From positions 75,960 through 139,959 of the forward strand of contig CAMDDU010000001.1 of NCBI GenBank assembly GCA_945892985.1: a DNA stretch of 64,000 nt, given 5' to 3'. A program made the translations under genes and the position numbers. The notes under the pieces are model-generated. The model searched no databases and had not been told where the DNA came from. It worked only from the letters and a program-made list of their open reading frames with translations. Source of the DNA: Bordetella parapertussis (GTDB lineage: Bacteria > Pseudomonadota > Gammaproteobacteria > Burkholderiales > SG8-39). Below are positions 2,791-39,450 of this stretch, piece after piece (the stretch's first letter is position 1; each line of letters starts with the position of its first letter).

Positions 2791-3492
2791 TTACAGTGCG
2801 AGGTAGGTGGCGCGCACCTCCTCGTTGGCGTTGAGTTCGGCAATAGTGCCGGAAAAACGAATGCGGCCTTTTTCTATGATGTAGGCGCGGTCGGACACCT
2901 CAGTGGCGAAATGCAGGTTTTGCTCCGACAGCAGCACCGACACGCCTTCACGCTTGAGTTCGCCTATGGCGGCGGCCATCTGGTCGACGATCACCGGCGC
3001 AAGCCCCTCAGAGGGTTCGTCCAGCAGTATGCACAGCGGGTTGCCCATCAAGGTGCGCGCAATGGTCAGCATTTGCTGCTCCCCCCCCGACATGCGGCCG
3101 CCGGGACGGTCTTTCATTTCACCGAGATTGGGAAACAGGCGGAACAGCTTTTGCGCGGTCCACTCGGGCACACCGGCACGCTTGGGCTGGCGGCCGACCT
3201 CGAGGTTCTCCATCACCGTGAGGTCGGTGAAAATGCGCCGGTCCTCGGGCACATAGCCCAGGCCCGTCTTGGCGATCTGGAAGGGCGCGAGGCCACCTAT
3301 CGATTGGCCCATGAAGCTGACCGTGCCGGAACGCGCCGGTGCCAGCCCCATGATGGATTTCATCGTCGTCGATTTGCCCGCGCCATTGCGCCCGAGCAAC
3401 ACCACCACTTCGCCGCGCCCGACTTCAAGTCCGACGTCGGACAGGATGTGCGCCTGGCCGTAATAGGTATTGAGTCCGGCGGCCTTGAGCAT
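2791..3492 (-). CDS. Branched-chain-amino-acid-type ABC transporter ATP-binding protein (LivF-like)
   Basis: 233 aa with Walker A GRNGAGKST, signature SGGEQQML and Walker B ILLDEPSEGL. The start shares one nt with the LivG-like stop (TGATG). Confidence 0.9.
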   Translation of the reverse strand: MLKAAGLNTYYGQAHILSDVGLEVGRGEVVVLLGRNGAGKSTTMKSIMGLAPARSGTVSFMGQSIGGLAPFQIAKTGLGYVPEDRRIFTDLTVMENLEVGRQPKRAGVPEWTAQKLFRLFPNLGEMKDRPGGRMSGGEQQMLTIARTLMGNPLCILLDEPSEGLAPVIVDQMAAAIGELKREGVSVLLSEQNLHFATEVSDRAYIIEKGRIRFSGTIAELNANEEVRATYLAL

Positions 3493-4283
3493 CAGTGCCT
3501 CGACCCCAGATAGACCTGCTGCACCTGGGCATTGCCGCGCACCTCGGCCGGGGTGCCGGCGGCGATCAGGCGGCCGCGATTGAGGACGATCAGGCGGTCG
3601 GCGTGGGCGAACACCACATCCATATCGTGTTCGGTAAATAGTACGGCAATACCGCGCTCGCGCACGATTTCCGCGGTCAGGGCCATCAGCGCAATGCGCT
3701 CCTGCGGTGCCATGCCGGCGGTCGGTTCATCCATTAATAGCAGGCGCGGCTCATTGGCCAGCGCCACGGCGAGTTCAACCCGCTTGAGATCGCCGTAGGC
3801 AAGAATGGAACAGGGACGCTCGGCCTGCTCGAGCATACCGACGCGCGACAGCAGCTTGTCTGCTGCGTCGCGATACATCTCTGCCGCCCGTTTCCAGAAA
3901 TTGGCCAGGCGCCGGTGATACGACAACAAGGCCATTTGCACGTTCTCGCGCACCGTCATCGACGGGAAGGTCGCGGTGATCTGGAAGGTGCGGCCCACGC
4001 CCATGCGCCAGACTTCGCGCGGTTTTTTTCCCACCACCTCGACACCGTCGATTTTCACGCTGCCCGAGTCCGGTGCGAGCTGGCCGTTGAGCATGTTGAA
4101 GCAAGTGGTCTTGCCGGCACCGTTAGGGCCGATCAGAGCCAGCAGCGTGCCCGGCTCGACGCTGAAACTCACCCCCTGCACCGCCTGCACGCCACCAAAG
4201 GACTTTTTCAAGTCCTGCACGGCCAGAACGTTCAGGCGTTCTCCTTGTGGTGCGCTCAGGCGTTCTCCTTGTGGCGCGCTCAC
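3492..4283 (-). CDS. Branched-chain-amino-acid-type ABC transporter ATP-binding protein (LivG-like)
   Basis: Walker A GPNGAGKTT, Walker B LLLMDEPTAGM, and LKKSFGG near the N-terminus. I chose the GTG start at 4283..4281, which makes a GTGA overlap with the permease stop. The 370-aa track ORF (to 4604) runs upstream inside the permease gene and is not credible. The exact start is uncertain because of the 24-bp duplication. Confidence 0.85.
   Translation of the reverse strand: MSAPQGERLSAPQGERLNVLAVQDLKKSFGGVQAVQGVSFSVEPGTLLALIGPNGAGKTTCFNMLNGQLAPDSGSVKIDGVEVVGKKPREVWRMGVGRTFQITATFPSMTVRENVQMALLSYHRRLANFWKRAAEMYRDAADKLLSRVGMLEQAERPCSILAYGDLKRVELAVALANEPRLLLMDEPTAGMAPQERIALMALTAEIVRERGIAVLFTEHDMDVVFAHADRLIVLNRGRLIAAGTPAEVRGNAQVQQVYLGSRH
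4232..4279. repeat. Tandem 24-bp direct duplication (one mismatch) at the permease/LivG-like junction
   Basis: tcaggcgttctccttgtggTgcgc followed by tcaggcgttctccttgtggCgcgc, read directly. It encodes SAPQGERL twice in the LivG-like frame. Each unit carries AAGGAG and TGA on the coding strand. Confidence 0.9.
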
Positions 4284-6157
4284 GTGTCCTCCCGGCGAGT
4301 AAAACGCGAGCGGATGAAGCCGACGATGCCTTGCGGGAAGGCCAGCACCAGCACGATGATGGTCATGCCAAGCAATGCGCGCCAGTAATCGGTGTTGCGC
4401 GCGATGGTGTCCTGCAGCCATGTGAACACCACGGCGCCCACCACCGGTCCGGACAAGGTCTGCACGCCGCCTAGCAATACCATCACCAGGCCGTCGACCG
4501 AGCGCGCAATGCTCATGACATCGGGGGAAATGCTGCCCTTGGAATACGCATACACGGCGCCGGCAAGGCCGCCGAACATGCCGACCACGACAAAGGCGCT
4601 CCACTGCAGGCGCGCGAGATCCATGCCTATGGCGTCGCAGCGCAGTGGCGAATCACGACCGGCGCGCAGCGCATAGCCCCAGGGTGAGAACAGCATGTGC
4701 CTCAACATCCAGATGCCGGCGCCGCACAGCACCAACGCGAGGTAGTAAAACGCCGTCTTGCCCGACAGCCACGCCGCCGGCCAGATACCCACCAGGCCGT
4801 TGGACCCGCCGGTGAATTCGTCCCATTGGAACATCACCGACCAGGCAATCTGCGCGAACGCCAGGGTCAGCATGGCAAGATAGACCCCGGACAGGCGCAC
4901 ACAAAACCAGCCGAATACCAAGGCTCCGACCCCGGCCAGCAAAGGCGCGGCGAGCAGCGAAACTTCCATCGGCGCGCCGGCGTTCTTGAGCAGCAGCCCG
5001 GCGCCGTAGGCCCCGAGGCCCATGTATGCGGCGTGACCGAAGGAAACCATGCCGGCCGGCCCCATCATGAAATGCAGGCTGGCGGCAAACAAGGCGAACA
5101 CCAGGATGTCTATGCCCAGAATGACCGTGTAGGGCGTCGAAATAAAAGGCAAGGCAAGCAGCAGCGTAAGCAAGGCCCAGGCGCCGCGTTGCAATTTCGG
5201 GCCGGCCGGACGCAGCGGCGGCTCAACATGAGCGCTGGAAACATGCGCCACCGATTGCGGCCGGCCGAGCAGCCCCCAGGGTCGCACGATCAGGACCACG
5301 GCCATGACAAGAAATTCCACCACCAGCGTCAACTTGGACAGCGAAATCACCGTGCCAAACAGCGTCACCTGCCCGATGCCATAGCACAAGGCCTTGATTT
5401 CGGAGATGAGCAAGGCGGCGAGAAACGCCCCCGGAATACTGCCCATGCCACCGATCACCACCACGACAAAGGCATCTGAAATAGTGGTCAGGTCGAGGAA
5501 CAATTGTGCCGGTTCACGCGGAATCTGCAGCGCGCCGCCCAGGCCCGCCAGTAAGGAACCGAGGGCAAACACACCGGTGAACAGCCACTTCTGGTTCACG
5601 CCGAGCGCACCCACCATGTCGCGATCCTGCGTCGCCGCCCGCACCAGCGTGCCCCAGCGCGTGCGATTGAGCAGCAGCCAGAGCAGGCCCAGCACCGCCG
5701 GTCCGATGAATATGAGCAGCAAATCGTACTCGGGCAGCGGCTTGCCCAGCACGTCTATCGAACTGCCCAGGCCGGGGGCGCGCGGCCCGAGCAAGTCCTC
5801 GGCGCCCCAAATCCACAGCGCGGCGTCCTTGATCACCAGCGTCAGCCCAAAGGTGGCCAGTAGCTGGAACAGTTCGGGCGCATGGTAGATGCGCCGCAAC
5901 AACACCATCTCGATCAGCGCGCCAAGCAGGCCCACCGCCAGCGCCGCCAGAGCGATGCCGGTCCAGAAGCCCAGCGCCCCGCCGCCCAGTTTGGCGATCA
6001 GGCTGTAGGCGATATAAATGCCCACCATGTACAAGGACCCGTGGGCGAAATTGACAATGCGCGTAACGCCAAAAATAAGCGACAGGCCGGCCGCCACCAG
6101 GAACAGCGTGGAGGCGCCGGCAAGGCCGTTGAGGAACTGGATGACAAAACTGGACAT
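4280..6157 (-). CDS. Fused LivH-LivM type ABC permease in a single polypeptide
   Basis: 625 aa. The N-terminal half (FLNGLAGASTLFLVAAGLSLIFGVTRIVNFAHGSLYMVG) is LivH-like. The C-terminal half (MMGPAGMVSFGHAAYMGLGAYGAGLL) is LivM-like. It is hydrophobic throughout. Confidence 0.88.
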   Translation of the reverse strand: MSSFVIQFLNGLAGASTLFLVAAGLSLIFGVTRIVNFAHGSLYMVGIYIAYSLIAKLGGGALGFWTGIALAALAVGLLGALIEMVLLRRIYHAPELFQLLATFGLTLVIKDAALWIWGAEDLLGPRAPGLGSSIDVLGKPLPEYDLLLIFIGPAVLGLLWLLLNRTRWGTLVRAATQDRDMVGALGVNQKWLFTGVFALGSLLAGLGGALQIPREPAQLFLDLTTISDAFVVVVIGGMGSIPGAFLAALLISEIKALCYGIGQVTLFGTVISLSKLTLVVEFLVMAVVLIVRPWGLLGRPQSVAHVSSAHVEPPLRPAGPKLQRGAWALLTLLLALPFISTPYTVILGIDILVFALFAASLHFMMGPAGMVSFGHAAYMGLGAYGAGLLLKNAGAPMEVSLLAAPLLAGVGALVFGWFCVRLSGVYLAMLTLAFAQIAWSVMFQWDEFTGGSNGLVGIWPAAWLSGKTAFYYLALVLCGAGIWMLRHMLFSPWGYALRAGRDSPLRCDAIGMDLARLQWSAFVVVGMFGGLAGAVYAYSKGSISPDVMSIARSVDGLVMVLLGGVQTLSGPVVGAVVFTWLQDTIARNTDYWRALLGMTIIVLVLAFPQGIVGFIRSRFTRREDT

Positions 6158-6258: not shown

Positions 6259-7470
6259 TCAGTTTGCCGGCCGCATCTTTTTTACGTCGGCATCGCTGGG
6301 CAGGAATTTCGCGCCGTCCTGGTAGGACCACCCCGGCAACATCACGCCCTTGCCGTCTTTTTTACCGATGCGCCCGACATACGCGCCCATGGTGGACTGG
6401 TTGTCCTGGGTGCGGTAGGTCACCTTGCCAAAGGGCGTATCGACCTGCAGGCCCTGCATCGCGGCAAGCAGTTTCTCGGTGTCGACGCTGCCGGCCTTGC
6501 GCAGGACGGCGGCGGCCGACATCACCGTGGCATAGCCGACTATGGAACCGAGGCGCGGATAATCGTTGAATTTCTTCTGGTAGGCATCGAGAAACTTCTT
6601 GTGCTCGGGCGTCTTGATTTCGGACCACGGGTAACCGGTGACATACCAGCCTTCTGGCGTGTCGTCCTTGAGCGGATCGAGGTACTCTGGTTCGCCGGCC
6701 AGAAGGTTGAACACCGCGGTGTTCTTGAACAGGCCGCGCACGTTGATTTCACGCGCGAACTTGGACAGGTCGCCGCCGAACAACGATGAGAAAATGGCGT
6801 CCGGCTTGGCATCTGCCAGCGCCTGGGCCACCGCACCTGCGTCGATCTTGCCCAGTGTGACGGCCTGCTCGCTGACAAACTCCACGTCCGGCTGGGCTTT
6901 TTTCAACAGTTCCTTAAACGCCGCCGTCGCCGACTGGCCGTATTCATAGTTCGGGTAAATGATCGCCCAGCGCTTTTTCTTCAGCTTGGCCGCCTCGGGG
7001 ATCAGCATCGCCGTCTGCATGTAGGTCGATGCACGCAGGCGGTAGGTGTAGCGGTTGCCGTTTTGCCAGACGATCTTGTCGGTCAGCGGTTCTGCGGCGA
7101 TGAACAGCACTTTTTTCTGCTTGGCAAAATCGGCGACGGCAAGACCGATGTTGGACGGGAAGGTACCGATGAGGAACTGCACGTTCTCGCGTGACAGCAG
7201 TTCTTCGGCGACGCGGACGGCGTCGCCGGTGGTGCCGTTGTCATCGCGGGAAATCACTTCGATCTTGCGTCCGAACACGCCGCCGGCGGCGTTGACCTCA
7301 TCAACAGCAAGATCGATACCACGCTTGTAGGGCTCAAGGAAAGCCGGGAACACCTTGTAGCTGTTGAGTTCACCGATCTTGATCGTACCCTGGGCCGCAA
7401 CCGGCGCGGCGAGGCCGGCCGAAATGGCGAGCATGGCTGCTGTTGCGAGAAACTGCTTGCGTGCTGTCAT
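6259..7470 (-). CDS. Periplasmic substrate-binding protein, type I PBP (LivK/amide-binding family); ligand unknown
   Basis: 403 aa with signal peptide MTARKQFLATAAMLAISAGLAAPVAAQG followed by TIKIGELNS, which is typical of Leu/Ile/Val-binding family proteins. Confidence 0.85.
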   Translation of the reverse strand: MTARKQFLATAAMLAISAGLAAPVAAQGTIKIGELNSYKVFPAFLEPYKRGIDLAVDEVNAAGGVFGRKIEVISRDDNGTTGDAVRVAEELLSRENVQFLIGTFPSNIGLAVADFAKQKKVLFIAAEPLTDKIVWQNGNRYTYRLRASTYMQTAMLIPEAAKLKKKRWAIIYPNYEYGQSATAAFKELLKKAQPDVEFVSEQAVTLGKIDAGAVAQALADAKPDAIFSSLFGGDLSKFAREINVRGLFKNTAVFNLLAGEPEYLDPLKDDTPEGWYVTGYPWSEIKTPEHKKFLDAYQKKFNDYPRLGSIVGYATVMSAAAVLRKAGSVDTEKLLAAMQGLQVDTPFGKVTYRTQDNQSTMGAYVGRIGKKDGKGVMLPGWSYQDGAKFLPSDADVKKMRPAN

Positions 7471-7558
7471 AGCTACTCTCCCGAAAATGAAACTGCTGAT
7501 ATTGATCTAACAGGAAGCAAAAACCGCGGACAAGGACCGCCGACTTTGCAGGCCATCC

Positions 7559-8239
7559 TCATTTTTGTCCGTCACCCACCTTGATTTCTGAGACCTTCAT
7601 GCCGCCAACGCGCGCATGTACGCGCGGGCCGGTGGTCATCGCCAGAATATACACAATTTCATCCGGCCGGGGCGCGTCCGGAACACCCATCTCCACCGAG
7701 TCAAAATGGCTGCGCACATAGGCGGCTTCGCGATGGTGGATGGGAATGTCTATGCGCGTGCCGGCAGCCCCGACCTTGCCCGCCGACGGAACAATAGCCT
7801 TCGAGTTGTCGAGCAGTTCCCTCATGCCATAGCCGCCAGGTACATGCCAGAGCGCGCAGTGTTCGGTCTCACCGGCCGTGCCGACAATGGCGCCTTTGCC
7901 ATAGGCCTCGATCTTTTTCGCTCCGCCCAGCGCGGCGATCAGGCGTGCCGCCATATCCAATCCCAGCGGTTTCATCGCTTCCATCAGTGGCATGATGTCG
8001 TCAACATAGCCGCCCGCGTACGGATTCTTGATCACTACGGCAATCGCGCCGCGACGGTGCGGTGTTTTCGCCACCGGTCCGCCTTCGTGGCTGATGTCCT
8101 CGACCATCAGTACTATCTTGCGAATCTCAACTTTGGGTGCCTTGCTTGCCCCGGCGGCCTTGCCGGCCTTGGACACCTTTGACGCCTTGGAGACCTTAAG
8201 GCCCTTGACCGCGTTTTTCGACTTCGCTTTACCCGCCAT
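7559..8239 (-). CDS. Amino acid synthesis family protein (DUF1185 / AA_synth) with an N-terminal Lys/Ala-rich extension of about 36 aa
   Basis: 226 aa. The core (IRKIV..VEDISHEGG, NPYAGGYV, YGKGAIVGTAGETEHCALWH, VRSHFD, DAPRPDEI) matches my memory of PF06684 proteins. A strong SD (GGGAGG) lies 6 nt before ATG 8239, so the tail is likely translated. Confidence 0.8.
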   Translation of the reverse strand: MAGKAKSKNAVKGLKVSKASKVSKAGKAAGASKAPKVEIRKIVLMVEDISHEGGPVAKTPHRRGAIAVVIKNPYAGGYVDDIMPLMEAMKPLGLDMAARLIAALGGAKKIEAYGKGAIVGTAGETEHCALWHVPGGYGMRELLDNSKAIVPSAGKVGAAGTRIDIPIHHREAAYVRSHFDSVEMGVPDAPRPDEIVYILAMTTGPRVHARVGGMKVSEIKVGDGQK

Positions 8240-8260
8240 TGCCGCCTCCCTGATTCATGT

Positions 8261-9124
8261 TCATGAATGTGCCAGTTCCGTCGACGCACCTGCGCGAAGC
8301 GCGCGCTCTGGCGCGAGCATGCGAACTCGTTGCTGCAAAAACAGCGCTGCACCACGCACCAGTCCCGCGGCGATGAGCTCTTTCGCCTTGGCGTGCCCCC
8401 GGTCAAGGGCTTGGTCTATTTTCTCCGGCGACAGCGGCCCCACTGCTATCGTCACCAGGCGCGCTCCAAGATCACTGTCATCCTTGATCGAACACGCCGG
8501 TTTGCGCGCGATGACAGCGTCATCGACATTGACCGCGTTGGCGATAATCGTCGCCGCCGCATCCGCGGCGGCGGCGTTGACGGCAAGCACCGTTACGCTG
8601 TCGGCGATGCCAAGGCTAAAACTCCTGCCCCGCCATCCGCTTGTGGCCACGCCGCCGATGCCGGCATTGGCGCCAACCGAGATGTGGCCGGCCATCTTTT
8701 CGAATCCCTGCGCCACACCAACCTTGAATACCTCTCCCGGCCCGAGATGAAGGGCGATGTCGCCGCCATTATTGACGTAGGCCTTTCTAATGTCGCCGTC
8801 CACCAGGGCATCCAACACCTCATCGGACACAGCCCCGGCCACTGCGGCCATCGGCGTGATGAAGACTTCGCGATAAGGCCAGCAGGCCTTAAGCATGCGG
8901 CGCGCCACGGGGCCGCGCACCGGTTGCGCCTGTGCCACGTCGCGTCGCAGCAGCGACAATTCGCCACTCAAGACTTCCAACAGTCGCTGAAACCGCTGCC
9001 AGGCGCGTTCATACGCAAGCCTTACCGCCTCGGCGTCGCCCTGAGCCTCGATAATCAGATCGATGGGGCCGTGCTGAAAATGGGCACGCGCCCCATCGAG
9101 CATCGCGAATAACGGGCCGCTCAT
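8261..9124 (-). CDS. UPF0280 family protein (ApbE-superfamily-like), function unknown
   Basis: 287 aa. The N-terminal HFQHGPIDLIIEA and the overall size recall UPF0280 proteins. There is an ATGA overlap with the upstream 522-aa gene. Assignment is from memory. Confidence 0.6.
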   Translation of the reverse strand: MSGPLFAMLDGARAHFQHGPIDLIIEAQGDAEAVRLAYERAWQRFQRLLEVLSGELSLLRRDVAQAQPVRGPVARRMLKACWPYREVFITPMAAVAGAVSDEVLDALVDGDIRKAYVNNGGDIALHLGPGEVFKVGVAQGFEKMAGHISVGANAGIGGVATSGWRGRSFSLGIADSVTVLAVNAAAADAAATIIANAVNVDDAVIARKPACSIKDDSDLGARLVTIAVGPLSPEKIDQALDRGHAKAKELIAAGLVRGAALFLQQRVRMLAPERALRAGASTELAHS

Positions 9125-10689
9125 GGCTTCACCGGATCATCCGAGACGACATCGGCCGCGACGAGGGGCCACGGGTTCGCCGCATCCCAATCAATGATCT
9201 TGTGTTGCGCCGTCGACAGTACGGCTTCGAGCGACTGCACCCGGTCCATATGGCCGCCAAGCTGCTCGTAATCGGCAAGCTTCATACTGAACTCCACCGG
9301 CGCGACAATGGCCGGCGTTGGCACCCAGCCAAAGGATTGATCGGGCATTTTCATCACATCGGTCATCACCATGATGCCGCCACCGGGCCAGACGTAAGCC
9401 GGCGCGCCACCGCAGGTGACCTGGACCAGTGCATCTTTGATCGAGAGCGTCAGCGCGATGGGGTTTTCTGTCACACCCGCGCGCAGAGATCCTCCCGCCC
9501 CGCCCATGAAGAGCACCGTACAAAGCGCCGGTTCGCAATTCTCGCCGATGCGATCGACGACTTTCTTGATCGCTGCGGGCATGTCAGCCGGCTGCGGTTG
9601 CAGCTTGTCATCAAGAATGAAGTAGGCCCAATCCTCCCCTGTGGTCGACACAAAGAGGATGCGTTCGCCAGGCCATGCCGTCTTCGGATCGATGGCTTTG
9701 ATGATTTTCAGCGGATCGGTAATATCCGTCCCTCCCCAGCCCGCGCCGGGATTAGCGACCTGGAAGTAGCGGCCGGGCGTGGACTTGCGGCCTATGACCT
9801 TGACGCCGCCATCGCGCATGCCGAGGAACTTGCCCGCCTGATGCTCGGACAGCACGCCGGTGATGTGATCGTCCACCACCACCACCTCGTCAACGTGGCC
9901 CTCCCACTGCTTGGCGAAAATGCCAATAGTGGCGGAGCCGCAGCCGACCCGCATGCGCTGTTCCTCCACACCGTTGATGATCGGCGCCCTACCCGCCTGC
10001 ACGACGATCTTTGCCCCGCCTTCGATGTCCAGTTCAACCGCCAGCTTGTTGCCGAGCGCCATCATCACGTCGCAGGTGACGCGGCCTTCTTTTTTGCTTC
10101 CGCCGGTGAGATGGTGAACGCCACCGATAGACAGCATTTGCGAGCCGTACTCGATGGTCGTGACGTGCCCGACTGCCTCACCGTCAACGCGGATGGTCGC
10201 CTGTTCCGGACCAAGATAGCGGTCGGTGTCGATTTTCAGCTTGAAACTGCAGTAACTGAAAATGCCCTCAGTCACCACCGTGACCATATCGACGCCATGA
10301 TGCTTTGACGAAACAATAAACGGTGCCGGCTTGTAGTCCGGATACGTCGTCCCAGAGCCCACGCCGGACACAAACAGCTCTTGCGCATCGCCGCCGGACT
10401 CGGGGTTTGCGAGTACCACCTCCTGGAAAGGCGCGACAGGATTGCCGTTCCAGCCGGCATCGCTGGAAAAGCGCACCAGGCGGGGGTTTTCAGCCGGTCG
10501 TCGCATCAACACCAGCGGATCGACGCGGGTCAGCACGCCCGCCACGTTGGCATAGCGGTCGCAGGCGCCGGAACGTCCGGCTGTGATATTGCAAAGTACC
10601 GGGCAGGCGTTGCAGACAATTTTTCCTGATCCGGCTTCGACGGCATCAGGAATCAGATCCGGAGCCGGATCCGCATGGGTGGTCGCCAT
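9121..10689 (-). CDS. Fe-S protein of the family annotated as 6-hydroxynicotinate reductase (Hnr-like)
   Basis: 522 aa. It has an N-terminal Cys cluster CNACPVLCNITAGRSGACDRY and Gly-rich stretches (VGCGSATIG, MGGAGGS). GAAGGAG lies upstream of the ATG. The family name is recalled from annotations, not verified. Confidence 0.6.
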   Translation of the reverse strand: MATTHADPAPDLIPDAVEAGSGKIVCNACPVLCNITAGRSGACDRYANVAGVLTRVDPLVLMRRPAENPRLVRFSSDAGWNGNPVAPFQEVVLANPESGGDAQELFVSGVGSGTTYPDYKPAPFIVSSKHHGVDMVTVVTEGIFSYCSFKLKIDTDRYLGPEQATIRVDGEAVGHVTTIEYGSQMLSIGGVHHLTGGSKKEGRVTCDVMMALGNKLAVELDIEGGAKIVVQAGRAPIINGVEEQRMRVGCGSATIGIFAKQWEGHVDEVVVVDDHITGVLSEHQAGKFLGMRDGGVKVIGRKSTPGRYFQVANPGAGWGGTDITDPLKIIKAIDPKTAWPGERILFVSTTGEDWAYFILDDKLQPQPADMPAAIKKVVDRIGENCEPALCTVLFMGGAGGSLRAGVTENPIALTLSIKDALVQVTCGGAPAYVWPGGGIMVMTDVMKMPDQSFGWVPTPAIVAPVEFSMKLADYEQLGGHMDRVQSLEAVLSTAQHKIIDWDAANPWPLVAADVVSDDPVKP

Positions 10690-10836
10690 CAGGGCTCCTT
10701 CGTGCCAAAGCTACCATCGCTGTCATCGCTGCAATAGGACTCACCCGTGTTGCCGGGATTCAAACAGGACATTGGCGAGACCATGCGGCCCCCGGAGTGA
10801 GGCCCACGACGGGCGCCGGCGCAATGGCTACCCGGT

Positions 10837-13605
10837 TCACGCTTTTTGATCCCGCAACAGCTTACGCAGACGGTCGGGCGTTGCTGGCGCGTGGCGGACG
10901 ATCACCCCGGTGGCGTGGCGTATGGCGCCGAATATGGCCGGCGCGGTGGCGATCAGCGCCGGTTCGCCCACGCCTTTGGCGCCGTACGGGCCCAGCGGTT
11001 CGGCATCCTCGACCAGGAACACGTCTATTGGCGGGATGTCGCCGATGGTAGGAATAAGGTAATCGTGCAGGTTGTCGGTCTTGCCGGCCTGGTAATCCTC
11101 CATCAGCGCGAAGCCCAGCCCCTGCGCCACGCCGCCGTGGATTTGGCCTTCCACTTGGGTCAGGTTGAGTGCCCGGCCGACATCGTGGGCGGCGCCTATG
11201 CGCAACACCTTTACCGTGCCCAGCTCGATATCGACTTCCACCTCGGCCATTTGCGCGGCAAAGGCATAGGTTGCGTAAGGCACGCCCTGCCCGTCCTTGT
11301 CCAGCGCGATGGTCGGCGGATTAAACGTGCCCTCGCCGGTGAGGACGTTGCCGCGCTCGTCGCAGGACAGCTCGGACAGATTGATGCGATGTTCACCCGC
11401 GCTGTCGCTGGCGATGAGTTCGCCATGTTCCAAGCGAAGTTTGGCGTCGGCTTTGGCCTCCACCAGCGCGAGCATGCGCGCGCGCAACTGCTCGCCGGCA
11501 AGGCGTGATGCGCTGCCCGAAACAAAGGCCTGGCGCGAGGCCGAGGTCTTGCCCGCGTCTGCGGTAAGGTCGGTGTCGCCCATGACAAAATCAATGTCTG
11601 ACATGCGCAGACCCAGCGCGTCGGCCAGCACCTGCAGCAGCGTGGTGTTGGAACCCTGGCCAATGTCGACCGCGCCGTTGTAAAACATGATGCGGCCCTT
11701 GCGCGTCAGGCCGGCGCGAAGTGTCGACGGATTGGCCATGCCGGTATTGCCGCAGCCATACCACATGCAGGCGACACCAACGCCGCGGCGCACTTTGCCG
11801 GCCTTGCCCGCCAGATTGAACGCTTCGCATTCGGCCTGCGCCTTGAGCCAGCGCGGCTTGAGCGCTTTGAGGCATTGGTCCAGGCCGGCGCTGGCCTTGA
11901 GCACCTGGCCGGTGGCCGTGGCCTGGCCGGCGCGAAGGGCATTGATGAGCCGGAACTCCAGCCTGTCGATGCCGGTCTTTTCTGCCAGGTCGTCGAGCAG
12001 GGTTTCATGCGCGATGGTCGATTGCGGCACGCCAAAACCGCGAAACGCCCCGGCGATGGCGTTGTTGGTATAGACGGCGCGCGTCGCTGCCCTGAAGTGC
12101 GGAACGAAATACGGGCCGGAGGCGTGAATCGGCACGCGATTGGCGACGGTAGTGCCCCAGGAGGCATACGCGCCGGTGTTGAAGTCGCCCTCAAAATCGG
12201 CGGCGAGCAGCCGCCCTTTTGCGTCACAGGCAAAACGCACCTGCATGGCGGCCGGATGACGTTTGGTCGTCGAGACCATGGTCTCGGGCCGGGAATACAC
12301 CCCGCGCACCGGACGCTTGAGCTTCCACGCCGCCACCGCCAGCATCGGCTGGATGGCAATGTCGAGCTTGCCGCCGAAGCCGCCGCCCACCGCCGAGGGG
12401 ATGATGTGTACCTGCGTTGCCTGCAGTTTCAGGATGCGCGCGACTTCATCGCGGTCCATATAAGGCGTCTGGGTGCAGGCGAATATGCGTATGCGCTCCA
12501 CGCCCTTCTCGGTGATGCACTCGGCATAACCGGCCTCGGGCTCGATATAGCCGTGTTCCACATGACTGGTGGTGAACCGCCCTTCGGCGACAAAAGCCGC
12601 GGCGGCCAGCGCCTTGGCGGCGTCTCCCTTTACCACGCGACCGTGTATCAGCACGTTGTCGGGATTATTGGCGTGCAAGGGCTCGCGCGTGTCGGCCAGC
12701 GCCTGCTCCGATTCGAGCAGTGGCACTTGTACCTGCCAGGTGACGGGCACCTCCTCGTCGCGAACGCGCAGCAGGGTTTCGTAATCGCCGACCAACGCAC
12801 ACAGCGCTTCGCCGCGAAACCTGACCCGCATATCGCCGAAGACCGGCTGGTCTTTCACATCCGGGAAGGTGCCAAAGCTGTTTTCCGCCACGTCACGCGC
12901 GGTGACAATATCCACCAGGCCCGGGTATTTGGCCAACAGCGGCTTGAAATCGCCAAAGGAAAATGTCGCCCGCGCGTGCGGCGAACGCACCGCGCGCAGC
13001 CACAGCGAACCTGCTGGCGCCTTGTCCGCGCCGTACAGTTCGGCGCCGGTCAATTTGGCCATGCCATCGGTCTTGGGCGCGCGGCTGCCGACCGCCTCGC
13101 CCGCCGCCGGCTCATCCACAGCGAGATCGCCCATGGCCACCGCCAGCACCGCTTCGATGATCTTGCGATAGCCGGTGCAGCGGCACAGCACGCCACCCAG
13201 CGCATCCTGCACCGCCTGCTCGTCCGGGTTGGCGTTGCGTGCCAGCAGGTCGGTTGCGGCCATCAGCATGCCCGGCGTGCAAATGCCGCATTGCGCCGCG
13301 CCATGCTTGTGAAAAGCCTGCTGCAGGGCATTGAGCTTGCCGTCGGCCCCGGCAAGGCCTTCCACAGTGGTGACCGAGCGCCCGGCGCACTGGCCCAGGC
13401 CGACGATGCAGGAACACACCTGCTGCCCGTCCAGCAGTACGGTGCAGGCGCCGCAGTCGCCGGCGTGGCAGCCGATTTTGGTTCCGGTAAGGCCCAACTC
13501 GTCACGCAATACGTCGGACAGGCGACTTGCCGGATGCGCCTGCGCTGTGACCGGTTTGCCGTTGACTCGCAGTTCGGTGGACATGTTTTGCGCCGGCTTG
13601 TTCAT
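10837..13605 (-). CDS. Xanthine dehydrogenase/aldehyde oxidase family hydroxylase: N-terminal 2x[2Fe-2S] (CoxS-like) domain fused to the molybdopterin-binding (CoxL-like) subunit
   Basis: 922 aa from ATG 13605, which makes an ATGA overlap with the FAD-subunit stop. Motifs CHAGDCGACTV and CGICTPG...CRCTGY mark the two 2Fe-2S clusters. A long MoCo domain follows (GGGFGGK, GQG motifs). The track ORF extension to 14196 lies inside the FAD gene and I rejected it. Confidence 0.88.
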   Translation of the reverse strand: MNKPAQNMSTELRVNGKPVTAQAHPASRLSDVLRDELGLTGTKIGCHAGDCGACTVLLDGQQVCSCIVGLGQCAGRSVTTVEGLAGADGKLNALQQAFHKHGAAQCGICTPGMLMAATDLLARNANPDEQAVQDALGGVLCRCTGYRKIIEAVLAVAMGDLAVDEPAAGEAVGSRAPKTDGMAKLTGAELYGADKAPAGSLWLRAVRSPHARATFSFGDFKPLLAKYPGLVDIVTARDVAENSFGTFPDVKDQPVFGDMRVRFRGEALCALVGDYETLLRVRDEEVPVTWQVQVPLLESEQALADTREPLHANNPDNVLIHGRVVKGDAAKALAAAAFVAEGRFTTSHVEHGYIEPEAGYAECITEKGVERIRIFACTQTPYMDRDEVARILKLQATQVHIIPSAVGGGFGGKLDIAIQPMLAVAAWKLKRPVRGVYSRPETMVSTTKRHPAAMQVRFACDAKGRLLAADFEGDFNTGAYASWGTTVANRVPIHASGPYFVPHFRAATRAVYTNNAIAGAFRGFGVPQSTIAHETLLDDLAEKTGIDRLEFRLINALRAGQATATGQVLKASAGLDQCLKALKPRWLKAQAECEAFNLAGKAGKVRRGVGVACMWYGCGNTGMANPSTLRAGLTRKGRIMFYNGAVDIGQGSNTTLLQVLADALGLRMSDIDFVMGDTDLTADAGKTSASRQAFVSGSASRLAGEQLRARMLALVEAKADAKLRLEHGELIASDSAGEHRINLSELSCDERGNVLTGEGTFNPPTIALDKDGQGVPYATYAFAAQMAEVEVDIELGTVKVLRIGAAHDVGRALNLTQVEGQIHGGVAQGLGFALMEDYQAGKTDNLHDYLIPTIGDIPPIDVFLVEDAEPLGPYGAKGVGEPALIATAPAIFGAIRHATGVIVRHAPATPDRLRKLLRDQKA

Positions 13606-14444
13606 GCCGCGATCCTCGCCAGCGCGCGCTTGAGCAGGGTCTGCACCACATCCAGGCGGTATTCGGCCGTACCGCGTACATCGGCAATCGGGCTGAGCGG
13701 CTGCAAATCGGCTGCCGTGACCAGATCGGCCAAGGATGGTGTGAGGCGTTTGCCGGTGAGTTTTTGCTCCAGCCCCGGCAGGCGTTGCGCCACCGCGGAA
13801 CAGGCGCCCACGGCGATGCCGCAACGCGTGATGAGACCGTTCGCATCGACGGCGATGACAGTGGACACCATGGCAATGGATATCACCAGGTATTTGCGCG
13901 AGCCGAGCTTGAAAAAATCGGCACGCGTTCCGGCCGGCCACTTGGGCACGCGCAGACCGGTCACCAGTTCGTCCGGCTTGCGCGCTGTCTTGCGATTGGC
14001 GAGCAAGAACGCCGCCAGCGGCAGGCTGCGCAGGCCTTGCGGGCCGGCCAGTTGCACGTCGGCATTGAGCGCCAGCAGGGCCGGGACGCCGTCGGCCGCA
14101 GGCGAGGCGTTGCAGATATTGCCGGCAAGCGTGCCGGTATTCTGTATTTGCACACCGCCGACCTCGCGCGCCGCCAGTTTCAGGCCGGCAAAGCACTCGG
14201 GCAAGGCCGCCTGAATGAGTTCGCTCCAGGTCACCAGCGCACCAATGTGCCAGTAGTCTGCGTCCGCCACCTCGCGAATTCCGCGCAGGTCGTCAATGCG
14301 GCTGATATCAAGCACATCCTCTTCTATCAAGCGCCCCACCCGCGCCGGATAGAAGTCGGTGCCACCGGCAAGCACCACATAGGGCTTGGACGACAAAGCG
14401 GAAAAAGCTTCGGTCAGACGGGTCGGGCGCAGGTATTGGCTCAT
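13602..14444 (-). CDS. FAD-binding subunit of the molybdenum hydroxylase (CoxM/XdhB-like)
   Basis: 280 aa. VLAGGTDFYP and TLAGNICNASPAADG are classic FAD-binding molybdopterin-dehydrogenase motifs. Confidence 0.88.
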   Translation of the reverse strand: MSQYLRPTRLTEAFSALSSKPYVVLAGGTDFYPARVGRLIEEDVLDISRIDDLRGIREVADADYWHIGALVTWSELIQAALPECFAGLKLAAREVGGVQIQNTGTLAGNICNASPAADGVPALLALNADVQLAGPQGLRSLPLAAFLLANRKTARKPDELVTGLRVPKWPAGTRADFFKLGSRKYLVISIAMVSTVIAVDANGLITRCGIAVGACSAVAQRLPGLEQKLTGKRLTPSLADLVTAADLQPLSPIADVRGTAEYRLDVVQTLLKRALARIAA

Positions 14445-14680
14445 TCTGGTATTCCAAGGATGGGGTCATGTTTTAAGTAAACGCTTCAAACCGGGCTCTA
14501 CTGTAGCCCAGCCTTGAAGCTATTTCAACGGCTTATCGCATCCTTCTCGGCTGCCCTTGCGCGCCAGCCCGGACACCGGTGCGTCTGCGGCCGATACAGC
14601 CGGAGGGCGGATTGCAGGCACTAGGAAAATACTTTAAGCTTGAAGCAATTGCCGGGCGAGCATCGTCGGGCACCCGGCCC

Positions 14681-14697
14681 TGGCATCGCGGATGCCA
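14681..14697 (+). promoter_or_regulatory. Palindromic TGGCATCGCGGATGCCA element; weak sigma54 -24/-12-like pattern or operator
   Basis: The GG and GC are spaced as in TGGCAC-N5-TTGC, but the -12 element is ATGC. It is a perfect 7-nt-arm palindrome 38 nt upstream of the OYE-gene ATG. Confidence 0.3.
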
Positions 14698-14734
14698 GCC
14701 TGGAACCGCAACGCTCAGGATCACCCGCGCAAGC

Positions 14735-16195
14735 ATGTGGAAGCCGCCGCAGCGAATCAAGTTTCATCCCAACCCAGGCCGGGTGCCCTCGGCAGAGGAA
14801 GCTGGCGCATCGCGACTCTTCAGCACCGCGCGCATCGGCGCGCTCGAACTGGAGCAACGCACCTGGGTCCCGGCGATGGTGCCGTGGCGCTCTAACGAAG
14901 ACGGTGTTGTCACCGCAGATGTGCTGCAATGGTACGAGCGCTTTGCGCGTGGACGCCCCGGGGCGATAGTCATCGAAGCAACGGGCATACGCGACATCCC
15001 CAGCGGGCCGCTGCTGCGCATCAGTCACGACCGCTACATCGCCGGCCTGCGCGAACTGGTTGAGACGATACGCCGCGCCAGCGCAGGGCATACGCGGGTC
15101 TTCATCCAGATCATCGATTTCCTCAGCATCCGCCGCCGTCCCGAAGCGGAAAAATTCTTCCAGCGGTTTTTGCGGATAAGCGAGCGCCATCGTGCACGCC
15201 TGAACGCCGTCGACTGGCCCGAACAGGCGATCCGTGACCATCTCGCAGCCCTTCCGGAAGCCGATTTGGAAAGCATACTGGACGCGCGCGAATGGGAAGC
15301 GCTGCAATTCGGCGCGCGCGAACGCGTGACCGACATGGCCTTGCCGCACATCCGGGCCTTACCGCAAACCCTTCCCGCCCTGTTTTCTGACGCCGCAAGG
15401 CGTGCCCAAGGGGCCGGATTCGACGGTGTGGAACTGCATTACGCCCACGCCTACACCATGGCGTCCTTCCTCTCGGCGATCAACAATCGCGCCGACGGCT
15501 ACGGTGGCAGCCGCGAGAACCGTGTGCGGCTTCCGCTCGAGGTCTACCAGGCGGTCAGGCAGGCCGTCGGCCCCGATTACGTCGTCGGCTGCCGTTACCT
15601 CGCCGAAGAATGCATTGAAGGCGGCAACACCGTCGAGGACGCAAGCTGGTTCGGTGTCGAATTTGCCCGGGCCGGCATGGATTTTATTTCCACCTCGCGT
15701 GGCGGCAAATTCGATGACGCAAAACAGCCGGGTGTCGGCTCATCGGCCTATCCCTACACCGGACCCAGCGGTTATGAGTGCATGCCGCAATATTTGTCAG
15801 ATGAATTCGGCCCGTTCGGCCGCAATATCGCGCCAACGGCGGCGATACGCCGCGCCATCCGCGACGCCGGCCTGCCAACCCCTGTGGTGTGTACCGGAGG
15901 CGTGCATAATTTCGACATGGCGGAGGCGATGCTGGAGCGCAATGACTGCGACATTGTCGGCACGGCAAGACAAAGTCTCGCCGACCCGGACTGGACGCTG
16001 AAAACGCTGCTCGGACTGGGTCATGAGGTGCGCTTGTGCGAGTACACCAATTATTGCGAAGGCCTCGACCAGAAGCACAAGCAGGTTACCTGCCAGCTGT
16101 GGGACCGCCAGCAGACAGATGAACCGGGTATCCGCCTGAGCAGTGACGGCAAACGCCGCCTGACCGCCCCGCCCTGGACGCCGCCGGCGGGTTGA
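14735..16195 (+). CDS. Old Yellow Enzyme family NADH:flavin oxidoreductase (FMN TIM barrel only)
   Basis: LFSTARIGALELEQRTWVPAMV, AIVIEATG, GFDGVELHYAHAYTMASFLS and the RADGYGGSRENRVR motif are OYE-like. I chose ATG 14735. The longer track ORF from 14579 begins in the divergent intergenic region. The start is uncertain. Confidence 0.82.
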   Translation: MWKPPQRIKFHPNPGRVPSAEEAGASRLFSTARIGALELEQRTWVPAMVPWRSNEDGVVTADVLQWYERFARGRPGAIVIEATGIRDIPSGPLLRISHDRYIAGLRELVETIRRASAGHTRVFIQIIDFLSIRRRPEAEKFFQRFLRISERHRARLNAVDWPEQAIRDHLAALPEADLESILDAREWEALQFGARERVTDMALPHIRALPQTLPALFSDAARRAQGAGFDGVELHYAHAYTMASFLSAINNRADGYGGSRENRVRLPLEVYQAVRQAVGPDYVVGCRYLAEECIEGGNTVEDASWFGVEFARAGMDFISTSRGGKFDDAKQPGVGSSAYPYTGPSGYECMPQYLSDEFGPFGRNIAPTAAIRRAIRDAGLPTPVVCTGGVHNFDMAEAMLERNDCDIVGTARQSLADPDWTLKTLLGLGHEVRLCEYTNYCEGLDQKHKQVTCQLWDRQQTDEPGIRLSSDGKRRLTAPPWTPPAG

Positions 16196-17832
16196 TGTTC
16201 GCCCCACTGCAGCACACCGGTTACGCCGACAGCTTCGCGCGCGACCATCTGCCACCGCGCGAACAGTGGCCGGAAATGATTTTCGAGTTGCCGGAATTAA
16301 TCTATCCGGACCGCCTCAATTGCGCCGCGGCGTTTGTCGACACGCACGTCGCGAGCGGACACGGCTCCGCAACCGCATTGATCGGTGCCGAGGAACGGCT
16401 GGACTACGCCGCCTTGCAGGCACGCGCCAATCGCATCGCCAGGGTGTTGACCGAGGACCTCAAGCTTCCCAGCGGCAGCCGGGTGCTGCTGCGCAGCGGC
16501 AATAAGCCCTTCCTCGCGGCAAGCTGGCTGGGCGTTATCAAGGCCGGCTGCATCGCTGTGACGACCATGCCGCTACTGCGCGAGCGCGAGCTTTCGACCA
16601 TTGTGCGCAAGGCAAACATCGCCGCAGCTATTTGTGATCACGCGCTGGCGGCGGAAATGGATCTCACCCGCTCGGCCAGCCCCGGATTGCGCAGCGTGCT
16701 GTACTTCAGCGCTCCCGCCGGACACCCTGACCGGATCGAGCCGCTTATGGAGCGCAAGGCGGCGACCTTTACCAACGTCGATAGCGCCGCCGACGACGTG
16801 GCGATGATCGCCTTCACCTCCGGCACCACAGGCGTACCCAAGGGAACCATGCATTTCCATCGCGACGTCCTGGCTATTTGCGACGTGTTGTCGCACCAGA
16901 TCATCGCGCCGCACCCGACCGATGTGTTCATCGGCACCCCGCCGCTCGCCTTCACCTTCGGCCTTGGCGGCCTGTTTTTATTCCCCTTACGCGCAGGTGC
17001 CGCCAGCGTGCTGATCGAGCAATGGACGCCGGAAAGCCTGCTGCAGGGCATTGCGCGTTTCAAGACCAGCGTCTGCTTTACTGCGCCGACCTTCTATCGC
17101 AAGATGGCGCCGCTCGCCAAAAACCACGACCTGCGCTCCCTGCGCATTGCCGTTTCTTCGGGCGAAATGCTGCCCGCGGACACGCGCACCGCCTGGCGCG
17201 AGGCCAGCGGCATTGAAATGACCGAGTGCCTGGGATCGACCGAACTGCTGCACGCCTTCATCGCCTGCAAACCCGGCGACATCCGCCCCGGCGCCACCGG
17301 CCGCGTCGTGCCCGGCTACCGCGCCTGCGTTCTTGGCGAGGACGGCCAGCCCCTGCCGCCGGGAACCATCGGCCGTCTTGCCATTAAAGGTCCTACCGGG
17401 TGCCGCTACCTTGACGACGCACGCCAGCTCAGCTACGTGCAAAACGGCTGGAACCTGACCGGTGACGCCTACCTCATGGACGAAGACGGTTACTACTGGT
17501 ACCAGTCGCGCACCGACGACATGATCATCAGCGCCGGCTACAACATTGCCGGGCCCGAGGTCGAGGACATACTGTTGACCCATCCTGCGGTGGCCGAGTG
17601 CGGCGTCGTCGGCGTGCCAGATGCTGCACGCGGACAAATCGTCAAGGCCTATGTTGTTCTGCGGCCCGGCCACAAGCCTGACGAAGCCACAACGCTTGTC
17701 CTGCAGGCATTGGTAAAAAATACCATCGCCCCCTATAAATATCCGCGTGCTGTAGAGTTCGTCGCAGCACTGCCGCGTACCGAGAATGGAAAAATCCAGC
17801 GCTACAAGCTGCGGCGCGGCGAACTCGCCTGA
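16195..17832 (+). CDS. AMP-forming aryl-CoA ligase, 2-aminobenzoate/benzoate-CoA ligase-like
   Basis: About 545 aa. The N-terminus ADSFARDHLPPREQWPEMIFELPELIYPDRLNCA resembles aminobenzoate-CoA ligases. The AMP motif is AFTSGTTGVPKG. It has a C-terminal GKIQRYKLR. There is a TGATG overlap with the OYE gene. Confidence 0.85.
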   Translation: MFAPLQHTGYADSFARDHLPPREQWPEMIFELPELIYPDRLNCAAAFVDTHVASGHGSATALIGAEERLDYAALQARANRIARVLTEDLKLPSGSRVLLRSGNKPFLAASWLGVIKAGCIAVTTMPLLRERELSTIVRKANIAAAICDHALAAEMDLTRSASPGLRSVLYFSAPAGHPDRIEPLMERKAATFTNVDSAADDVAMIAFTSGTTGVPKGTMHFHRDVLAICDVLSHQIIAPHPTDVFIGTPPLAFTFGLGGLFLFPLRAGAASVLIEQWTPESLLQGIARFKTSVCFTAPTFYRKMAPLAKNHDLRSLRIAVSSGEMLPADTRTAWREASGIEMTECLGSTELLHAFIACKPGDIRPGATGRVVPGYRACVLGEDGQPLPPGTIGRLAIKGPTGCRYLDDARQLSYVQNGWNLTGDAYLMDEDGYYWYQSRTDDMIISAGYNIAGPEVEDILLTHPAVAECGVVGVPDAARGQIVKAYVVLRPGHKPDEATTLVLQALVKNTIAPYKYPRAVEFVAALPRTENGKIQRYKLRRGELA

Positions 17833-17852
17833 ATAACACGGAGAAAGACATC

Positions 17853-18593
17853 ATGAGCACCCCCAAGCAGATGGACCGCTACAACGCTCTGATGGACGTG
17901 GTACGTAACCGCATGACCACGCGCCAATTCGACTCCTCCTACGTTGTGCCGCGCGAACATTATGAGCTGATACTGGATGCGGCCCGCCACGGCCCTTCCG
18001 GCGCGAACGCCCAGCCTTGGCATTACATCGTGGTGAGCAAGCCAGAAACCAAAGAGGCGATTGCCGATTATTTCGTCGAAGAACAGCGGCTGCGCGCCAA
18101 ACTGAAGATGAAGTTCCCGACGCCCAACTACCGCGGCCTCGAAGACGCACCCGGATTCATCGTCGTCGCTTCGGACTTTCGCTGGACGCGCGCTTTTCCG
18201 GTGCTCATGGACGGGTCGGATCTGGACAAGCAATACCATGAGAATGCCGAGCGCATCCTGCTTCAGTCGGTCGCGGCATCAACCATGTCGGCCCATCTCG
18301 CGGCGGCCGCACTCGGTTACAACGTCTGGTGGGTCACGGCCATCGGCCAGGAATCGGCCCAGAACGCGCTTAAACCGCTGCTTGGCATTCCGGACGATCT
18401 GGCGGTAATAGACATCTTTCTGTTCGGGCCGCCGGCCAAACCACCGTACAAGCGCTGGAAAAAAACCCTGCCACAAATCATGAATTGGGACAGATTCAAC
18501 ATGGACAACTACATGTCCGTGGAACAGATCGATGAATGGGTGCGCGAAAAACGTCACCATGTGATGTACAAGGACGAGAGCAAGATCGACTGA
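17853..18593 (+). CDS. Nitroreductase-fold flavoprotein
   Basis: 246 aa. RMTTRQFD and AARHGPSGANAQPWHYIVV are typical of the nitroreductase family. It starts 20 nt after the ligase stop. Confidence 0.8.
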   Translation: MSTPKQMDRYNALMDVVRNRMTTRQFDSSYVVPREHYELILDAARHGPSGANAQPWHYIVVSKPETKEAIADYFVEEQRLRAKLKMKFPTPNYRGLEDAPGFIVVASDFRWTRAFPVLMDGSDLDKQYHENAERILLQSVAASTMSAHLAAAALGYNVWWVTAIGQESAQNALKPLLGIPDDLAVIDIFLFGPPAKPPYKRWKKTLPQIMNWDRFNMDNYMSVEQIDEWVREKRHHVMYKDESKID

Positions 18594-18819: not shown

Positions 18820-19143
18820 ATGACCCACGTTGTTACCGAAAGCTGCATCAAGTGCAAGCACACCGACTGCGTAGATGTCTGCCCAGTTGATTGTTTCAAG
18901 GAAGGCCCGAACTTCCTCGTCATTGATCCTGACGAGTGCATCGACTGTGCCGTCTGTATTCCCGAATGTCCCGTGAACGCCATTTTTGCCGAAGAAGATC
19001 TGCCGGCCGGCCAGGAAAAATTCACCGCACTGAACGCTGATCTGGCCAAGATCTGGCCGCTGATTACCGACACCAAGCCCGCGCTACCGGACGCTGAAAA
19101 ATGGGCCGATGTGACGGACAAGCTGCAATACCTCGAAAAGTAA
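18820..19143 (+). CDS. fdxA: 7Fe ferredoxin ([3Fe-4S][4Fe-4S], Azotobacter FdI type)
   Basis: 107 aa. [26 protein letters not shown]...[16 protein letters not shown] is the canonical FdxA pattern. Confidence 0.93.
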
Positions 19144-25887: not shown

Positions 25888-25894
25888 CTCCGGC

Positions 25895-27421: not shown

Positions 27422-27467
27422 GTCATGGGAACCAAGACGGGGACGAAGGATATCGAAGCGCGTCGCC

Positions 27468-39066: not shown

Positions 39067-39077
39067 GCGCGCTCAAT

Positions 39078-39102: not shown

Positions 39103-39118
39103 CAAGCGTGGCCGGCGA

Positions 39119-39442: not shown

Positions 39443-39450
39443 GTTTTGCC

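Follow-up and report, generated by a model that had tools for sequence, protein, structure and literature searches.

The 64,000-nt stretch of contig CAMDDU010000001.1 analysed here (hereafter the window; positions are counted over the whole stretch) carries five consecutive minus-strand genes which, in our view, are likely to represent the first two catalytic steps of reductive nicotinate catabolism through 1,4,5,6-tetrahydro-6-oxonicotinate (THON), together with two dedicated companion proteins. The first gene (13602-14444) encodes a 280-aa, NdhF-like flavin adenine dinucleotide (FAD)-binding subunit of an XDH-family molybdenum hydroxylase, recognized by PF00941 (E 2.9e-38) and PF03450 (CO_deh_flav_C). 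The second (10837-13605) encodes a 922-aa subunit in which a 2x[2Fe-2S] part is fused to the molybdopterin part (Fer2, Fer2_2, Ald_Xan_dh_C, MoCoBD_1 and MoCoBD_2), and all the FAD, 2x[2Fe-2S] and molybdenum cofactor (MoCo)-binding domains of the XDH family are present within 10837-14444. These are followed by a 522-aa 6-hydroxynicotinate reductase (Hnr) of the proteobacterial type, without a fused 2x[4Fe-4S] domain (9121-10689), a 287-aa UPF0280/COG2122 protein of the ApbE superfamily (8261-9124; PF27030, AbpE_bact; NF003322, 383 bits against a cut-off of 290) and a 226-aa DUF1185/AA_synth protein (7559-8239; PF06684, E 1.8e-72; PDB 3byq, E 3e-55). The start of the gene for the iron-sulfur (Fe-S)/MoCo subunit overlaps the stop of the FAD-subunit gene in an ATGA at 13602-13605, the UPF0280 gene is coupled to hnr by another ATGA at 9121-9124, and a 147-bp spacer (10690-10836) separates the Fe-S/MoCo gene from hnr. 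An earlier note, made from the letters of this DNA, had described the same five consecutive genes; its coordinates proved exact, its ATGA couplings and 147-bp spacer were recovered at the sequence level, and Pfam and NCBIfam profile searches upheld its family assignments for the FAD subunit, the Fe-S/MoCo fusion, UPF0280 and DUF1185.

No Pfam or NCBIfam model matches the 522-aa protein in profile searches. Both NCBI and JGI label its homologues '6-hydroxynicotinate reductase', and its core is 41-45% identical to the Hnr of Firmicutes encoded within complete nicotinate fermentation clusters, which places it in the Hnr family as the earlier note had proposed. Nine residues (C26, C29, C33, C43, C250, T114, H283, R307 and R403) are invariant in 62 sequences of both phyla; the core motif CxxCxxxC...C is present and shared with the Firmicutes proteins, while T114 lies in the motif G-[SA]-G-T-x-Y-P. 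This Cys4 motif plausibly binds a [2Fe-2S] cluster. The distant homologues (38-45% identity) carry an additional N-terminal 2x[4Fe-4S] domain, and Fer4 domains were found in 42 anaerobe-type members, whereas neither the window Hnr nor its proteobacterial relatives have any. Purified Hnr of Eubacterium barkeri reportedly contains a covalent flavin, one [2Fe-2S] and two [4Fe-4S] clusters; in the anaerobe enzymes, the two [4Fe-4S] clusters belong to the fused Fer4 domain, a part absent from the window Hnr.

The AlphaFold2 (AF2) model of Hnr has a pLDDT of 83.8 (core mostly >90), and its search against the PDB by Foldseek returned no significant match (best E 0.12), as did a sequence search against the PDB, which gave no match. 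A kinship of the Hnr core with DUF39 or DUF362 was also considered and rejected, since a Pfam scan of the 62 members at E<=1 detected Fer4 and a weak GCV_T_C barrel only. Several metagenome proteins that look like Hnr-UPF0280 or MoCo-Hnr fusions (P0152, P0250, P0184, P0164 and P0170) may be read-through or gene-calling artefacts, the genes concerned being overlapping ones, and were not used as evidence.

Relatives of the 522-aa protein were collected by a scan of one genome per species, and at least 597 species genomes encode one. The best 80 loci, from Burkholderiales and Alphaproteobacteria, were fetched, including those of Paraburkholderia xenovorans LB400, Variovorax and Polaromonas; all window proteins were compared, and neighbour counts refer to the 45 loci whose flanks extend 8 kb or more on each side (full-flank loci). 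UPF0280 lies beside Hnr in 44 of these 45 and DUF1185 is present in 40, each time together with UPF0280, so the three genes that the earlier note had singled out for a co-occurrence analysis are conserved neighbours in 40/45 proteobacterial loci, and they recur side by side in Firmicutes. A molybdenum hydroxylase of any type is present in 43/45 loci: the window arrangement, with the FAD gene and the Fe-S/MoCo fusion upstream of hnr, is seen in 23 loci, and a CoxS plus IorB/NicAB-type hydroxylase pair lies downstream in 16. The FAD gene upstream of hnr is kept in XDH-type loci. Such conservation of gene order far exceeds chance. A Liv-type ATP-binding cassette (ABC) importer also belongs to 38/45 loci. 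In the window, the importer genes follow the triad on the minus strand: a Liv/Urt-type periplasmic binding protein lying 3' of the triad (6259-7470; PF13458; 58-77% identity in related loci), a fused double permease with UrtB-like and UrtC-like halves (4280-6157; PF02653 in two stretches) and two ATPase genes (about 3492-4283, with an uncertain start, and 2791-3492; PF00005, BCA_ABC_TP_C), which are kept in related loci. Several loci have, directly upstream of hnr, a gene for a 259-aa short-chain dehydrogenase (L086, 5673-6452; L087, 5659-6438; L003, 9215-9994); this gene is found in several of the loci that carry hyuA, described below, and not in the window.

The molybdenum hydroxylase resembles nicotinate dehydrogenase in its parts. 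Against the E. barkeri enzyme in the PDB, the 922-aa subunit scores 229, 218 and 127 bits with the L, M and S subunits, the top score per residue, while its match to Desulfovibrio MOP amounts to 409 bits over the whole length. The 922-aa subunit would thus be equivalent to NdhS, NdhL and NdhM together and may act as a nicotinate 6-hydroxylase, with the FAD protein as a further nicotinate dehydrogenase subunit. In contrast to this fused arrangement, the S, L and M subunits are split in the E. barkeri type.

Two of the distant Hnr homologues have a long genomic context, those of Sporomusa ovata (L082) and Thermanaeromonas toyohensis (L083). In both, the order is a four-subunit dehydrogenase with separate FAD, 2Fe-2S, MoCoBD_1 and MoCoBD_2 proteins, a 387-aa amidohydrolase taken as enamidase, Hnr, AbpE_bact (PF27030), AA_synth, an Hgd-like and an Hmd-like protein, and T. 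toyohensis additionally has genes for a B12 mutase, a PrpF-type isomerase, a lyase and an aconitase-type protein. These clusters are nicotinate fermentation clusters of the E. barkeri type, and genes for the first three enzymes of that pathway are said to occur in nine Proteobacteria. As in the window, an XDH-family nicotinate dehydrogenase adjoins Hnr, and UPF0280 followed by AA_synth/DUF1185 comes directly after it; because the triad lies inside these clusters, it forms part of a genuine nicotinate pathway in both phyla. Unlike them, the window has no enamidase and no Hgd, Hmd, Mgm, Mii, Dml or Dmd, the B12-dependent set that follows downstream, and it adds the ABC importer, a ferredoxin and a putative reductase. 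Among the proteobacterial loci, the recurrent amidohydrolase matches the E. barkeri enamidase (PDB 2VUN) over its full length (E 3e-110), and 13/45 loci encode a nicotinamidase (NF008623, 182 bits, cut-off 174).

The proteobacterial cluster has also been described before, for Azorhizobium caulinodans ORS571, Bradyrhizobium japonicum USDA110, Rhodopseudomonas palustris HaA2 and strain SG-6C (PMC3511419, 2012, Fig. 4), where, as in the window, it includes two conserved hypothetical proteins and an ABC transporter, and growth on nicotinate and 6-hydroxynicotinate is documented (PMC3511419). The THON route was established in aerobic Azorhizobium by work of 1989-1992 (cited in PMC3511419 and PMC9304392). 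The coupling of ring hydroxylation to ring reduction proposed in the earlier note is retained. The respiratory host that the note pointed out is matched by Azorhizobium, and the module it called uncharacterised is in print; the note's view that the substrate could not be told is also superseded to a useful degree, given that the enamidase orthologue and nicotinamidase of close relatives point to nicotinate. The note had named an existing biochemical assignment of the cluster as grounds for refutation, and on these grounds its claim is half refuted: the three enzymes have such an assignment, while the two partner proteins do not, and here the note was right that their roles are not established: we found no paper assigning a function to Hnr-linked UPF0280 or DUF1185. 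The original supposition, a reductive N-heterocycle module not recognised before and separate from known pathways, might draw on the fact that Hnr, UPF0280 and DUF1185 have no functional Pfam or NCBIfam model or solved complex and that the Hnr fold has no PDB match; with the cluster published (PMC3511419) and the triad present inside canonical nicotinate fermentation clusters, we regard this as very improbable.

In the pathway that we favour, substrate would enter through the Liv-type ABC importer, the FAD and Fe-S/MoCo subunits would act as nicotinate dehydrogenase to form 6-hydroxynicotinate, and Hnr would reduce the pyridone ring of this product to THON with low-potential electrons, which may pass through the N-terminal Cys4 cluster to the active site. 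The nicotinate dehydrogenase and Hnr module itself is already published, and the locus offers only a modest case for a new system; possible novelty lies in a variant with HyuAB in place of enamidase, an electron-supply module and a sharper question on an ApbE-like partner.

Ring opening is a step at which the window departs from the published cluster, which encodes enamidase. Downstream of the ABC importer lie, on the minus strand, hyuA for a HyuA/CapA-like subunit of an ATP-dependent lactamase (742-2781), a gene for an EthD/DUF4286-like protein (101-745; weak EthD and DUF4286 matches) and hyuB (Hydantoinase_B; 1-104), whose first ~34 codons fall inside the window and whose remainder is cut off by its edge; the hyuB ATG, at 104, overlaps the stop of the EthD-like gene in an ATGA. 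The three HyuA domains (Hydant_A_N, Hydantoinase_A and Hydant_A_C) are complete, and the best NCBIfam match is to the caprolactamase alpha subunit CapA (513 bits against an equivalog cut-off of 1000). The same order of hyuA, ethD-like gene and hyuB is found in the syntenic locus L086, which has a full HyuB; its EthD-like protein at the same position is 57% identical to that of the window, and the N-terminus of L086 HyuB (PF02538) matches the window HyuB fragment with 65% identity over 37 aa (E 1e-13). Of the 45 full-flank loci, 32 encode enamidase and 5 encode HyuA; the two never occur together, 8 loci lack both, and in a neighbor-joining (NJ) tree of Hnr the HyuA-type loci are interspersed with the enamidase-type ones. 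Enzymes of the CapAB, OplAB and Hyu kinds are lactamases that depend on ATP (PMC8453981), and the window HyuA shares its domains and a proposed lactam substrate with CapAB, OplAB and N-methylhydantoinase, a HyuB N-terminus being present at the window edge, although the window HyuA falls under the CapA cut-off and an EthD-like gene splits the subunit genes. It is also of note that THON is a six-membered lactam. Hence, judging from the gene content, HyuAB is probably a non-orthologous replacement of enamidase, which is the most economical reading, and HyuA/HyuB would open the THON lactam ring at the expense of ATP. Our literature search found no paper tying HyuAB to nicotinate.

Several observations weigh against the nicotinate assignment. 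A tblastn search with the 2VUN-like enamidase of strain LB400 gave no match in the 64-kb window, and nicotinamidase and Fpr-type ferredoxin-NADP reductase (FNR) homologues, looked for across the same 64 kb, were not found either; the assignment consequently rests on orthology (63-70% identity) with loci that have these genes. The substrate of the molybdenum hydroxylase is not readable from its sequence, every NCBIfam equivalog model being below cut-off, and the role given to HyuAB is taken from gene neighbourhood. Moreover, the published identity of 42% to E. barkeri Hnr (PMC3511419) is that of a related protein and not of the window Hnr. Finally, an insertion between the hydroxylase operon and fdxA (14579-18593, plus strand), absent from the published cluster, encodes an old yellow enzyme (OYE)-like Fe-S flavoenzyme, a benzoate-coenzyme A (CoA)-ligase-family ligase and a nitroreductase-family protein (Pfam and NCBIfam); it is confined to the window lineage and could signal a modified substrate or another downstream route.

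These points bear on an alternative in which the enzymology is the same and the substrate is another N-heteroaromatic carboxylate, for example another pyridine carboxylate. In that case a CoA-activated intermediate would be handled by the CoA ligase together with the OYE-like reductase, and HyuAB would open a saturated lactam. It would account for a window that has neither enamidase nor nicotinamidase and for ligase, OYE-like and nitroreductase genes placed between fdxA and the hydroxylase genes in this lineage only: among 86 related loci, the OYE-like and ligase genes occur in the window and in the near-identical locus L001, and the nitroreductase also in L086. In addition, the hydroxylase genes are the part least conserved between the window and L001, a 98%-identical relative in which the Fe-S/MoCo subunit is 82% and the FAD subunit 86% identical to those of the window, while figures of 96-97% and 93-100% were obtained for neighbouring genes; the hydroxylase genes may therefore have recombined or diverged faster. 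The Fe-S/MoCo subunit is 946 aa long in L001 and 922 aa in the window. Nevertheless, in the NJ tree Hnr proteins from HyuA-type loci lie dispersed among those of the enamidase type and form no clade of their own, nicotinamidase is encoded in the HyuA-type loci L003, L056 and L087, and the binding protein, Hnr, UPF0280 and DUF1185 are equally similar to those of enamidase-type and HyuA-type loci. We therefore consider a different substrate quite unlikely, and a separate substrate class for HyuA-type loci was rejected as unsupported by the Hnr tree. The inserted genes may provide further downstream steps or may be an unrelated insertion, and their membership of the pathway is uncertain.

An electron source for Hnr is suggested by the plus-strand genes beyond the insertion. 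These encode an FdxA-type 7Fe ferredoxin (18820-19143; NF045490, 161 bits) and an adjoining 1175-aa Fe-S flavoprotein with GltD/NfnB-like and PyrK/NfnA-like parts (19240-22767; Fer4_20, Pyr_redox_2; PRK06567, 786 bits; PyrK-like matches), for which precomputed matches list Pfam RP005_N. A ferredoxin adjoins hnr clusters in 13/81 loci and the 1175-aa flavoprotein recurs beside them in L005, L038, L056, L068 and L086, while in other loci FdxA and an Fpr-type FNR flank the cluster; the Comamonadaceae loci thus pair FdxA with Fpr-type FNR, and the window pairs it with the Nfn-like protein. Fusions of a GltD-like NAD(P)H oxidoreductase to the Hnr core occur in some lineages (P0126, P0129). Taken together, the recurrence of FdxA and the 1175-aa protein, the FNR of other loci and the GltD-Hnr fusions support a path from NAD(P)H through ferredoxin to Hnr. 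From its domains, the 1175-aa protein resembles an NAD(P)H-dependent ferredoxin reductase of the Nfn type in a single chain; it would recharge FdxA from NAD(P)H, and FdxA, encoded separately, would probably donate the electrons to Hnr, whose proteobacterial type has no ferredoxin domain fused to it. If true, this chain of NAD(P)H, Nfn-like flavoprotein, FdxA and Hnr would explain how an aerobe can drive a Birch-like ring reduction. That the 1175-aa flavoprotein performs electron bifurcation is speculation.

The two companions, UPF0280 and DUF1185, are most likely Hnr-linked accessory proteins that would serve Hnr maturation or cofactor loading, and both UPF0280 and AA_synth also stand beside Hnr in the clusters of S. 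ovata and T. toyohensis. UPF0280 is treated here as an accessory factor dedicated to Hnr, for which two mechanisms were considered, namely non-canonical flavin attachment and cluster, sulfur or other cofactor maturation. Its AF2 model is confident (pLDDT 91.7). A Foldseek search with this model returned the DUF375 protein DVU1097 (2o34) first, and the next 39 matches were all ApbE, Ftp or FmnB structures, with a probability near 1 and moderate TM-scores of 0.35-0.5. At the sequence level, UPF0280 scores 21.9 bits with Pfam ApbE (PF02424), below the cut-off of 25.6, and hhalign aligned the GG and TSG motifs with those of E. coli Ftp (E 6e-4). The invariant D188 and T192 of UPF0280 align with the Ftp metal ligands D280 and T284 (ligands as in PMC4767422, Table 3), while Ftp D283 and E169 are replaced by invariant alanines (A191 and A96), so that the metal set is incomplete.

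On one account, UPF0280 would be a cytoplasmic ApbE-like FAD:protein FMN transferase that installs a covalent flavin, such as E. barkeri Hnr reportedly carries, at a non-canonical site, for example the invariant T114. The exclusive matching of a confident model to DVU1097 and ApbE/Ftp/FmnB structures speaks for it, as do the aligned GG and TSG motifs, the D188/T192 pair corresponding to metal site 1 of Ftp, and a gene that is translationally coupled to hnr and remains its neighbour across phyla. UPF0280 is cytoplasmic and has no lipoprotein signal, which sets it apart from the ApbE/Ftp transferases; however, cytoplasmic ApbE enzymes exist (PMC12052999). As to the presumed target, the canonical flavinylation motif Dxx[ST]GA[ST] was found in 0/62 Hnr sequences and in 0/17 proteins of the locus. 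The alanines at the D283 and E169 positions, the sub-threshold Pfam score and the TM-scores of 0.35-0.5 also count against a transferase, and homology of the COG2122 branch was reported not to reach the part of ApbE that binds flavin (PMC5764234). Overall, we rate flavin transfer by UPF0280 as a doubtful, though considered, candidate.

On the other account, UPF0280 would not transfer flavin but would take part in the maturation of a cluster, sulfur or another cofactor, or be a structural partner, of a low-potential, ferredoxin-linked Fe-S enzyme. COG2122 proteins (DvMF_0044 and MA1715) are genetically required, with DUF39 and NIL/ferredoxin proteins, for homocysteine synthesis, and it was suggested that they have a role related to persulfide (PMC5764234). 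Among solved structures, the nearest is that of DVU1097, a Desulfovibrio COG2122 protein which belongs to the same UPF0280/DUF375 family, and Hnr is likewise a ferredoxin-domain-linked Fe-S protein; the incomplete ApbE catalytic set would fit as well. Yet the Hnr-linked proteins form a subfamily with its own model (NF003322, PF27030) and about 23% identity to DVU1097, their partner is Hnr instead of DUF39, to which homology in the Hnr core was undetectable (0/62 members), and their context is catabolic and not biosynthetic, with no sulfur-transfer step in the Hnr reaction. This mechanism seems unlikely on balance.

The partners can be joined in one picture, in which UPF0280, possibly with DUF1185, would be a dedicated cytoplasmic ApbE-superfamily maturase that loads or attaches flavin or a different cofactor of Hnr by way of a non-canonical recognition site, COG2122/UPF0280 proteins would be obligate partners of low-potential, ferredoxin-linked reductases (Hnr in this case, DUF39 for homocysteine), HyuAB would open THON in place of enamidase, and the Nfn-like protein and FdxA would feed Hnr from NAD(P)H. 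As a whole, this combination is offered tentatively, as a possible reading that is less likely than not. The questions it raises matter beyond this locus. The reductive nicotinate pathway is widespread, Hnr has neither a structure nor a Pfam model, and both companions are uncharacterised; knowing their roles would show how an Fe-S reductase with covalent flavin is put together, and might throw light on the COG2122/UPF0280 family as a whole, on which homocysteine synthesis in archaea and Desulfovibrio also depends. Furthermore, enamidase alternating with HyuAB, and FNR alternating with the Nfn-like protein, offer testable cases of non-orthologous replacement in the turnover of vitamin B3 by soil and freshwater bacteria.

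As to DUF1185, family members form hexamers with a chorismate-mutase-like fold, and elsewhere their genes also lie beside Liv-type ABC systems (PMC2954203). The window protein has a Lys/Ala-rich, histone-H1-like N-terminal tail (MAGKAKSKNAVKGLKVSKASKVSKAGKAAGASKAPK) encoded by the first 37 codons (8129-8239, minus strand), with a GGGAGG ribosome-binding site before the ATG and a GC content at third codon positions of 0.76 in the tail; the solved family members have no such Lys/Ala-rich tail. The copy number also varies: two tandem DUF1185 genes follow UPF0280 in Paraburkholderia and Variovorax loci (L049, 12516-13751; L030, 12469-13827), one is found in the window, and none in L006, L056 and L086.

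Beyond the flavoprotein gene, the minus strand encodes a TetR-family regulator (22969-23643; TetR_N, TetR_C_29), homologues of which (40-54% identity) adjoin 25/45 full-flank hnr loci, and which probably regulates the locus. A promoter and terminator scan of 7000-15000 gave a signal no better than chance. The FAD-subunit gene and the OYE-like gene diverge from a 134-bp intergenic region that holds a nested inverted repeat (14483-14520), with outer arms GCTTCAA and TTGAAGC, inner arms GGGCT and AGCCC, and spacers acc, ctactgt and agcc from left to right; this repeat may be the operator to which the TetR regulator binds. The remaining window is ordinary chromosomal context, with a DUF1800/DUF1501 pair, mfd, hscA, iscS, cysE, suhB, an Opp/Dpp ABC system and ccmF (24724-27595 on the minus strand, 31694-35161, 36668-41179 and 60282-62261, the last of which encodes CcmF).

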